64,000 bases of DNA from Bdellovibrionota bacterium (GCA_044345405.1 JBIJBE010000004.1:32001-96000), one strand, 5' to 3'. Numbered from the stretch's first letter, positions 5,627 to 41,557 are shown. Program-made: numbers and translations. The notes: generated by a model from the sequence alone, not told the origin.

Positions 5627-5777
5627 GGGAGGGCGGTCATTCCCCCCTACGCTAAAGCTACGGGGGACCAGCCTGAGCGAACCCCGTCGCTGCGCTTTGG
5701 GGCACAAGCCGCGTTACGCACGGCGACCATGCTTCTCCCCCAGAGCTTCAGCGACGGTGGAGAATGGTCGCCCTCCC
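5627..5777. repeat. REP-like inverted doublet (REPIN-like) carrying three nested ~30-nt palindromic insertions
   Basis: GGGAGGGCGGTCATT... left arm and ...AATGGTCGCCCTCCC right arm; same arms at 36060-36178; insertions at 5642-5671, 5680-5708, 5732-5762. Confidence 0.8.
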
Positions 5778-5803: not shown

Positions 5804-5845
5804 AAAAAACGGGGGCGCGAACCACTACGGTCCGCGCCCCCGTTT
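5804..5845 (-). terminator. Rho-independent terminator of cyclophilin gene
   Basis: Minus strand AAACGGGGGCGCGGACC-gtagt-GGTTCGCGCCCCCGTTTTTT. Confidence 0.85.
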
Positions 5846-36059: not shown

Positions 36060-36178
36060 GGGAGGGCGGTCATTCCTGACCGCCGCGTGGTAACCAGCGA
36101 CCAGGTCCTTGGTGGCACGCAACATTTCGGCGACCAGCCTGTCCCGAGCACAGTCGAGGGGGGAATGGTCGCCCTCCC
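36060..36178. repeat. REP-like inverted doublet; left arm intact, right arm with a 25-nt nested insertion
   Basis: GGGAG-GGCGGTCA-TTCC-TGACCGCC-G hairpin (36060-36085); minus-strand arm GGGAGGGCGACCATTC[CCCCCTCGACTGTGCTCGGGACAGG]CTGGTCGCCG. Confidence 0.8.
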
Positions 36179-41483: not shown

Positions 41484-41557
41484 CGCACCCGAGAGGATTC
41501 GAACCTCTGACCACCCACTTAGAAGGCGGGTGCTCTATCCAGCTGAGCTACGGGTGC
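41484..41557 (-). tRNA. tRNA-Arg (anticodon UCU), CCA not encoded
   Basis: GCACCCG TAGCTCAGCTGGATAGAGC A CCCGC CT TCT AA GTGGG TGGTC AGAGG TTCGAAT CCTCT CGGGTGC G cloverleaf. Confidence 0.95.

Follow-up and report, generated by a model that had tools for sequence, protein, structure and literature searches.

Short hairpin repeats nested in the REP arms of a Bdellovibrionota genome and their partial association with small GIY-YIG genes

An inverted doublet of repetitive extragenic palindromes (REPs) occupies positions 5627-5777 of a 64,000-nt stretch of DNA from a Bdellovibrionota bacterium (GCA_044345405.1, JBIJBE010000004.1:32001-96000; referred to as the window), and both of its arms are interrupted by short C-run/G-run hairpins. 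Are these interruptions a part of the REP itself, or are they copies of a second repeat that has entered it, and what could have carried them there? The window forms part of C22, a contig of a draft genome (G000) with 3.59 Mb, 85 contigs and 55% G+C. At this locus one selfish repeat system appears to sit inside another of a different kind. Our main reading, to which we assign a probability of about 60%, is that a mini-hairpin of ~30 nt was inserted a few times into the tips of REPs and that the filled REPs were subsequently amplified. As the agent of insertion we put forward, tentatively and from sequence comparison, a small GIY-YIG nuclease that resembles the Ssn proteins.

The left REP arm (5627-5713, plus strand) has a GGGA head and a GGCGGTC-type stem, and it is interrupted twice. 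Mini-hairpin 1 (5642-5671, forward, C-type in the grouping described below; CCCCC..TACGCTAAAGCTAC..GGGGG plus a tail) is in the REP loop, and mini-hairpin 2 (5680-5708, plus strand, D-type; CCCCG..GGGGC ACAAG) is within the 3' strand of the REP stem, at TGACCG^CCGCG. A short inter-arm spacer, read directly from the sequence (5714-5721), is followed by the right arm (5722-5777, minus strand), a coaxially extended hairpin with a GGCGACC-type stem and a single loop insert, mini-hairpin 3 (5732-5762, minus strand; diverged C-type), which forms an inverted repeat with mini-hairpin 1. A sequence-only reading of the window had proposed that removal of the three segments restores REP arms, and its coordinates and alignments were correct. 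Scripted deletion of 5642-5671 and 5680-5708 gave GGGAGGGCGGTCATTCCTGAGCGCCGCG, one mismatch apart from the intact, uninterrupted arm at 36060-36087 (plus strand; GGGAGGGCGGTCATTCCTGACCGCCGCG), and deletion of 5732-5762 gave the minus-strand sequence GGGAGGGCGACCATTCATGGTCGCC, with one mismatch to the commonest ACC-type arm. The same reading had noted no clear target duplication, which agrees with our junctions: the insertion point is ambiguous by no more than 1 nt, and no target duplication beyond 1 nt was seen. The boundaries of the nested copies are near-exact. A fourth insert, absent from the earlier list, is the A-type mini-hairpin at 36138-36164, located in the filled arm (36129-36178, minus strand) that is the partner of the empty arm (36060-36084, plus strand).

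In a whole-genome nhmmer search the window inserts were matched at 5643-5668 (E = 0.027), 5682-5708 (E = 0.56) and 5733-5761 (E = 5.8), and by these weak values the three are diverged copies; REP-loop copies near-identical to mini-hairpin 1 are found at C57:31883 and C57:32028. Since mini-hairpins 1 and 3 are complementary at 73%, the whole doublet is still a long palindrome. It folds at -40.5 kcal/mol (z = -4.35), and the filled right arm alone at -16.6 kcal/mol (z = -4.41; none of 200 shuffles was as good). The other doublet of the window, in the 36060 region, gave a folding z of -2.70.

The host repeat is a short, G/C-rich palindrome in high copy number that occurs in inverted doublets and flanks a gene resembling REP-associated tyrosine transposases (RAYTs), the features by which REPs are recognised. 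An arm consists of GGGA-GGCG(AC/GT/AG)C(A/G), a TTCC or TCCC loop and the complementary stem; in the empty state the stem has 8 bp and the loop 4 nt, and stem variants are compensated (ACC/GGT, GTC/GAC and AGC/GCT). The head reads GGGAG, which may be a GGAG variant of the GTAG-like tag that precedes such hairpins. The 9-mer head GGGAGGGCG occurs exactly 292 times in G000. A stem partner is present at the empty spacing in 172 of these and at 28-37 nt in 53, of which about four look like chance. When one head mismatch was allowed, 299 empty arms were counted and 59 filled arms were picked, the latter reduced to 56 inserts after removal of double counts. The sequence-only reading had suggested such a census of empty and filled arms, and it stands at about 300 to 56. 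Forward and reverse matches are paired 40-110 nt apart as doublets of the REPIN type (REP doublets forming hairpins). The exact REP pattern was detected in 4 of 41 genomes (100 matches in G000, 76 in G020, 48 in G011 and 14 in G015), and the reversed pattern gave no match in any of the 41.

Do the inserts form one family throughout the genome? All 56 share the plan C-run, T(T/A)CGC, 3-6 nt, GCT(T/A)C, G-run, A-CA(A/G)G, which extends to the whole genome what had been proposed for the three inserts of the window. They are 24-31 nt long and have no coding capacity; the mini-hairpin of ~30 nt has a G/C-rich stem of 5-7 bp and a conserved loop, TTCGC-TAAA/CAAG-GCT(T/A)C, of ~14 nt; its 3' tail reads CA(A/G)G. 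Family A (TCCCTCGACnnTGCTCGGGACAGG) is found in ACC-like arms and is forward in 16 of 16 cases. Family B (TCCCACTTCGCTnCGCTACGAGGGACAAG) occupies both arm types, with 20 reverse and 2 forward copies, and an identical 29-nt B insert was found in GGCGACC and GGCGGTC arms. Family C, with TAAAGC or CAAGGC loops, is forward in 11 and reverse in 7 cases. Family D sits in the stem, on its 3' strand (TGACCG^CCGCG), and was seen in the window and, by eye, at C65:40750, C52:950 and C18:58795; the loop of the same arm is filled too in every D-filled arm. The loci on C65 and C52 are apparently duplicates of a single region. Next to the match at C26:81945, a D-like copy in a decayed state was noticed by eye in the flank.

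Orientation is fixed within a family and opposite between families, and most copies are therefore attributed to a few filled founders that were amplified with the REPs; the near-fixed orientation of A and B fits a small number of founder insertions followed by REP amplification. REP loops make up ~0.06% of G000. Chance does not account for the number of entries, which comprise three or four at the least into REP loops, one separate entry into the stem, and more in or near the centres of other palindromic repeats.

We next consider the mini-hairpin outside REPs. A core profile run with nhmmer gave 101 places in G000 at E ≤ 10; at 69 of them a REP head is no more than 45 nt away, and at 32 there is none so close. 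Among the 32 non-REP places are free-standing copies and repeat units of 84 nt and 106 nt in tandem, as well as D-type copies that flank a REP at a distance of over 45 nt from its head. One copy occupies the loop of another hairpin, which has a GTAG head (C45:24336, 12-bp host stem), and another has a 5-bp host stem (C60:57540); a further copy was seen by eye in another REP-like hairpin of G011. A dispersed repeat that starts with GAGAAACGAAAGCC (C40:12178, C40:15777, C45:72821 and C60:90252) holds the mini-hairpin variant TCCGCCTTCGCGAACGCTTCGGCGGACAGG and fragments of more. Two other readings were discarded. C62:27421 resembled the 3' end of a tRNA or transfer-messenger RNA (tmRNA), but ARAGORN and Rfam found no gene there, and the copy at C51:7061 is not an in-frame gene insertion, as stop codons surround it in all three frames of the element's strand.

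The loop 16-mer TTCGCTAAAGCTWCGG was found in 9 of 35 genomes of the genus. One of them, G012, lacks the REP and contains the 16-mer 37 times; of the 30 copies examined there, at least 26 lie within one element of ~170 nt that resembles a MITE (miniature transposable element with inverted repeats), with the stem CCGGCC/GGCCGG and not CCCCC/GGGGG. This MITE-like element is present in dozens of copies (loci L019-L048) with terminal inverted repeats TTTTCGAGATGGGAAAAAA, between which are the mini-hairpin and a second, inverted hairpin with a GTAGCCTTGGCGTAG loop. The mini-hairpin itself is a single hairpin with an asymmetric 3' tail, and neither the terminal inverted repeats nor the target duplication of a MITE or of a derivative of an insertion sequence (IS) was found in it. 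In the phylum sample, 22 of 78 genomes contain the 16-mer, with separate bursts of 37, 23, 12, 10, 9, 8 and 7 copies, and the reversed control was 0 everywhere. These data support the mini-hairpin as an element in its own right that exists apart from the REP.

A wider scan of one genome per species with the 22-nt pattern SSCCTTCGCTAAAGCTWCGGSS recovered at least 120 stretches, where a rough estimate of the chance expectation is ~0.5. The matches listed are from Alphaproteobacteria (with isolates and one complete genome among them), Patescibacteria, Bacteroidota, Verrucomicrobiota, Planctomycetota, Acidobacteriota, Desulfobacterales, Nitrospiraceae and Bdellovibrionota; among them, there is mostly one per genome and the flanks are unrelated. 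A CA(A/G)G tail is frequent. Among the matches listed, 12 of 120 loci have a tRNA gene no further than 120 nt away, and no Rfam family matches the mini-hairpin. The search pattern does not include the seventh stem pair, and this pair is of the Watson-Crick type in 94 of 123 instances (C-G 46, T-A 41; shuffle mean 50.8, maximum 66). Because this pair is mostly Watson-Crick and the positions beyond it are unpaired, the stem is a covarying one of 7 bp. The hairpin is under selection, and its stem is better supported by covariation than by isolated folding.

Which enzymes could belong to the two repeats? For the REP, G000 contains an open reading frame (ORF) of 155 aa at C15:62801-63268 with REPs on either side, a doublet upstream and a run straight after the stop codon that reaches the contig end. 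The ORF has an HIH motif and aligns to NF047646 (NCBIfam 'REP-associated tyrosine transposase') over 5-145 of 146 positions with 74.1 bits (E = 1e-20), slightly under the cut-off of 80 bits. Its score to the Pfam family Y1_Tnp (PF01797) is only 19.3 bits (cut-off 23), and for this reason the first Y1_Tnp scan missed it. Homologues were found in 14 of the 35 genus genomes, including all four REP carriers, and that of G011 has REPs within 150 nt. The assignment of the host to a RAYT-type REP family, made in the sequence-only reading, is supported by this REP-flanked gene, which is new in this analysis. The same structure (G000:C15:62640-63543, outside the window), a REPtron, contains at least six REP arms past the stop of the gene. 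The host repeat resembles published REP/REPIN-RAYT systems in being a high-copy hairpin with a conserved 5' head, in its inverted doublets and in its repeat-flanked RAYT-like gene (PMC3116915; PMC3733652). The mini-hairpin departs from the REP/RAYT pattern: it adjoins none of the seven Y1_Tnp-like genes of G000, with no mini-element found within 1.5 kb of them, and inspection by eye of the surroundings of the 155-aa gene showed REPs only and no mini-hairpin. The seven Y1_Tnp-like genes (~324 aa) were also rejected as the enzyme of this REP, as no such REP lies within 4 kb of them.

The RAYT-like genes that were inspected are each flanked by a different repeat of their own. One of the seven Y1_Tnp-like genes is flanked by a different hairpin, GTCACTGGTGCCAGG. 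A second RAYT-like gene of 324 aa (G000:C18:70847-71821; NF047646 80.7 bits) has a different hairpin, GTCACTGGTGCCAGGCTCTTT, alongside, with five direct copies upstream and one inverted copy downstream, and the unit is bounded by 290-nt direct repeats 2650 nt apart. A 324-aa Y1_Tnp-like gene is present in five copies on C52, C26, C67, C69 and C22 (2698-3672 of that contig, outside the window), with ~1 kb conserved and CTCTCTGTACCCGGGCTAC-type repeats adjoining; by its appearance it is either an IS200-like element that is active or a REP system, the third in this genome.

For the mini-hairpin, the GIY-YIG genes that the sequence-only reading had named as possible neighbours proved informative. 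There are three GIY-YIG matches in G000: one 620-aa frame, which we take from its length to be UvrC, and two single-domain proteins of 79 aa (C36:31721-31957 and C56:109-345; PF01541). PF01541 covers residues 1-72 of the 79-aa proteins (E = 5.7e-15), and in one of them a weak match to T5orf172 (22.5 bits) overlaps it. No NCBIfam family matches the 79-aa protein, and its nearest solved relatives are UPF0213 BH0048 (E = 2.6e-7) and SLX1. A mini-hairpin starts 0-5 nt past the stop codon of both small genes, on the 3' side only, and in both cases a common module, ACACTTCGCC...TGGCTTGCCACACGAAGC..., comes after it, with a tRNA or tmRNA gene next. This pairing of mini-hairpin and GIY-YIG gene is likewise new. 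The genes are followed by tandem units (106 nt x2 and 84 nt x3.5). The 106-nt array (G000:C36:31960-32169) has two copies with a mini-hairpin each and is placed between the GIY-YIG gene and the tRNA gene; the 84-nt array (C82:1-295 together with C56:1-345) has 3.5 identical copies, one mini-hairpin per unit, and is placed between the other small GIY-YIG gene and the tmRNA gene at C82:340-744. Contigs end inside these arrays.

The association extends to relatives of the small genes. In the clade of genus homologues that ends in KRL, a family hairpin was seen by eye within ~30 nt past the stop in 6 of 8, compared with 0 of 8 in the other clade. When a family hairpin within 200 nt of a small GIY-YIG gene was scored, it was found at 17 of 80 loci of metagenome relatives (48-58% identity), mostly 9-30 nt upstream and on the opposite strand, at 5 of 25 phylum-sample loci and at 1 of 14 genes of five distant genomes. 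For comparison, the hairpin-rich G000 has 16.7 family hairpins per Mb overall; with the reversed control, 7 matches were obtained genome-wide. At the level of genomes, a small GIY-YIG gene is present in 17 of 22 motif-positive and 23 of 56 motif-negative phylum genomes, and in all 8 phylum genomes that have five or more motif copies. The mini-hairpin and the small GIY-YIG gene are thus associated both physically and by genome content.

How far does this pairing resemble a known system? Chenal et al. (2025) describe Ssn as single-domain GIY-YIG proteins (CDD cd10448; SsnA has 94 aa) that bind the NTS/SRM hairpin repeat as single-stranded DNA (ssDNA) only and cut a few bases upstream of the repeat; among Ssn homologues, repeat-flanked genes range from 31% (NTS) to 71% (SRM), and the authors liken the system to an insertion sequence and to RAYT/REP (PMC11893778). 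As in that description, the protein here is a very small GIY-YIG protein of a single domain (79 aa; SsnA has 94 aa), a hairpin repeat in the 20-50 nt range borders the gene, and the repeat is patchy across phyla, from a few to hundreds of copies, with repeat-rich genomes tending to encode the gene (PMC11893778). Unlike Ssn, the nearest solved relatives are UPF0213 and SLX1, and nesting inside the loop of another repeat family is not among the features described in the accessible text of PMC11893778. The searched supplements of that paper (12 of 14 files in the first search) contain the name Bdellovibrio and none of our loop strings or protein peptide words, and a string search of the literature for the motif gave only two unrelated primer matches. 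As judged from sequence, the mini-hairpin/GIY-YIG pair seems to resemble Ssn on every count visible at that level except the SRM motif.

From these observations we propose the following account. The first system is a classical REP/REPIN family with its REP-flanked 155-aa RAYT-like gene. The second is the ~30-nt hairpin, nearly unchanged across many phyla and tending to adjoin genes for 79-aa GIY-YIG nucleases. On a few occasions copies of the second would have entered the single-stranded tips of REPs and, at one site, the stem on its 3' strand. Most of the ~56 filled arms would then descend from REPs that were filled before they multiplied, whether by REP/REPIN mobility or by conversion of one REP by another. 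By analogy with what was published for Ssn and NTS/SRM, the GIY-YIG protein may recognise the mini-hairpin as ssDNA and might drive its spread, and REP loops would be preferred owing to their single-strand exposure. In its strongest form this proposal makes the hairpin the cognate ssDNA site of a distinct, so far undescribed clade of 79-aa GIY-YIG proteins, a sister or new branch of Ssn with another motif, which would copy the hairpin into exposed palindrome tips; we regard this form as conceivable and think that it could well be wrong.

Insertions into palindromes have been noted before. According to reports on IS1397 and by Tobes and Pareja in 2006, REP palindromes are said to be preferred sites of IS insertion; such elements are reportedly full-length, with a transposase gene and target duplications, unlike the non-coding insert of 24-31 nt found here. 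The Nostoc repeats SDR4-6 of Elhai et al. (2008) are reportedly hairpin modules of 21-27 nt that are nested in other repeats and regarded as mobile. We know of no gene associated with them. They differ from the mini-hairpin in being described for cyanobacteria and in having other sequences. SDR5 inserts precisely within the HIP1 octamer (PMC4390886).

We searched for empty/filled differences between related genomes, the polymorphism that the sequence-only reading had expected if inserts are mobile. Of 12 mini-hairpin loci from G020 and G011, 10 have a flank matching G000. Three were aligned. One non-REP site was compared as C5:1290-1340 against L063 and L068; a T-run is present past its free-standing mini-hairpin, and G020 and G011 have there a 15-nt tandem duplication of the 3' half of the mini-hairpin that is not in G000. 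A 20-kb region of C65 dense in filled REPs is poorly conserved in relatives. Four lake metagenome runs compared with C18:41000-60999 showed no skip of ~30 nt at five sites; since their contigs break or cross-join at REPs, they are no evidence either way.

Several results count against few insertions by a dedicated agent followed by REP amplification, or limit parts of that proposal. The expected polymorphism did not appear, either between species or in the four lake metagenome runs. In the orthologous doublet of G020 (85% identity) all three inserts of the window are present as well, and three orthologous loci that were aligned gave no clean empty/filled pair, the REPINs varying in orientation or arrangement. 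Only C-type copies were found outside REPs, with no A-type or B-type copy seen there, and A and B may therefore have diverged in place; the founder events may have been as few as three or four. Tip targeting is not general, because no more than 1 to 3 non-REP copies out of 32 are surrounded by a host stem. In isolation the three window inserts fold at -3.5 to -4.2 kcal/mol (z = -0.56, +0.29 and -0.73), which is not above shuffles, and no strand bias of mini-hairpins relative to GC skew was found (40 vs. 31, p = 0.34). The GIY-YIG link is partial. A family hairpin within 200 nt is lacking at 63 of 80 loci of metagenome relatives and at 20 of 25 loci of the phylum sample, and among the small GIY-YIG genes of five distant genomes it is lacking at 13 of 14. 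No GIY-YIG gene match was obtained in G020, G011 and G015 (95, 84 and 76% complete) despite their filled REPs, and the Fisher p of 0.0054 for the genome counts is overstated because the tested genomes are interrelated. Unlike the Ssn repeats (PMC11893778), neither the REP nor the mini-hairpin contains the SRM motif HGTCWY..RNCYNB. This motif has 30 matches in G000 vs. 16 for the reversed control, which we call not enriched, with none near REPs, none near mini-hairpins and none within 3 kb of the two small GIY-YIG genes. The idea of a nested selfish system put forward in the sequence-only reading holds for the presence of a second, ultra-short element in REPs and gains no support for active targeting of REPs, as the orientations and the restriction of outside copies to the C type fit hitch-hiking.

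Some of these points would follow if the 'inserts' were REP subfamilies whose tips grew in place and were propagated with the REP, with the resemblance outside being convergence towards a favoured sequence. The near-fixed orientation of A and B, their confinement to REPs, the retention of all three inserts in the G020 doublet, and the lack of polymorphism at orthologous sites and in lake metagenome contigs are what such growth predicts. It does not predict C-type copies with the same 16-mer outside REPs, in the MITE of a genome without the REP and in many phyla with unrelated flanks, nor the identical 29-nt insert in both GGCGACC and GGCGGTC arms; the filling of a second, different REP position and the return to the empty sequence within one base upon removal of the insert also speak against it, and we consider it decidedly unlikely. 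Chance resemblance or an assembly artefact is hardly credible. G000 is a draft of 85 contigs and several of the repeats are at contig ends, but the reversed-pattern controls were 0, the same structures occur in isolate genomes and in related species whose genomes were assembled independently, and the window stretch is present in 20 metagenome runs.

The mini-hairpin could instead be a functional motif, such as a protein site or an RNA terminator, stabiliser or processing site near tRNA genes, that is kept by selection and spread by recombination or gene conversion with no enzyme of its own. The T-run is missing from most copies by eye, although the copy at C5:1300 has a terminator-like T-run and is maintained in three species, and no Rfam family matches. 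Near-identity of the 14-nt loop across phyla in unrelated flanks is poorly explained by vertical selection, and the lineage-specific bursts of 37, 23 and 12 copies resemble selfish amplification, even though most genomes have one or few copies. The covarying stem, in which T-G outnumbers C-A 14 to 6 at the seventh pair, and the tRNA genes within 120 nt in 12 of 120 loci (among the matches listed) are in keeping with such a function; this model leaves no room for the association with one GIY-YIG clade. We judge this explanation to be on the unlikely side and prefer few insertions of a separate mini-hairpin into REP tips followed by REP amplification.

REPs are usually treated as a single selfish or domesticated layer, and here a second repeat with a candidate nuclease is found inside them. 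If nesting of this kind is overlooked, REP typing and repeat annotation will misjudge composite arms. If the GIY-YIG link is functional, the pairing of a nuclease with a hairpin repeat known from Ssn and NTS would gain a new and very widespread motif, and a further ssDNA-specific nuclease/site pair would be available for the uses proposed for Ssn. Should the hairpin be the cognate site of the 79-aa proteins, it would be among the smallest mobile elements known, crossing phyla and in this genome parasitising a REP/RAYT system. What keeps 30 nt almost identical across phyla can be tested, as the genes, the sites and empty REP loops are all in one genome.

Two other features of the window were noted. 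A terminator-like hairpin, AAACGGGGGCGCGAACC / GGTCCGCGCCCCCGTTT, is found directly past the REP doublet at 5807-5845, and its first arm (AAAAAACGGGGGCGCGAACC) is invariant across G020, G011 and G015. The sole Rfam match of the window at the gathering score is a minus-strand tRNA gene at 41484-41557.

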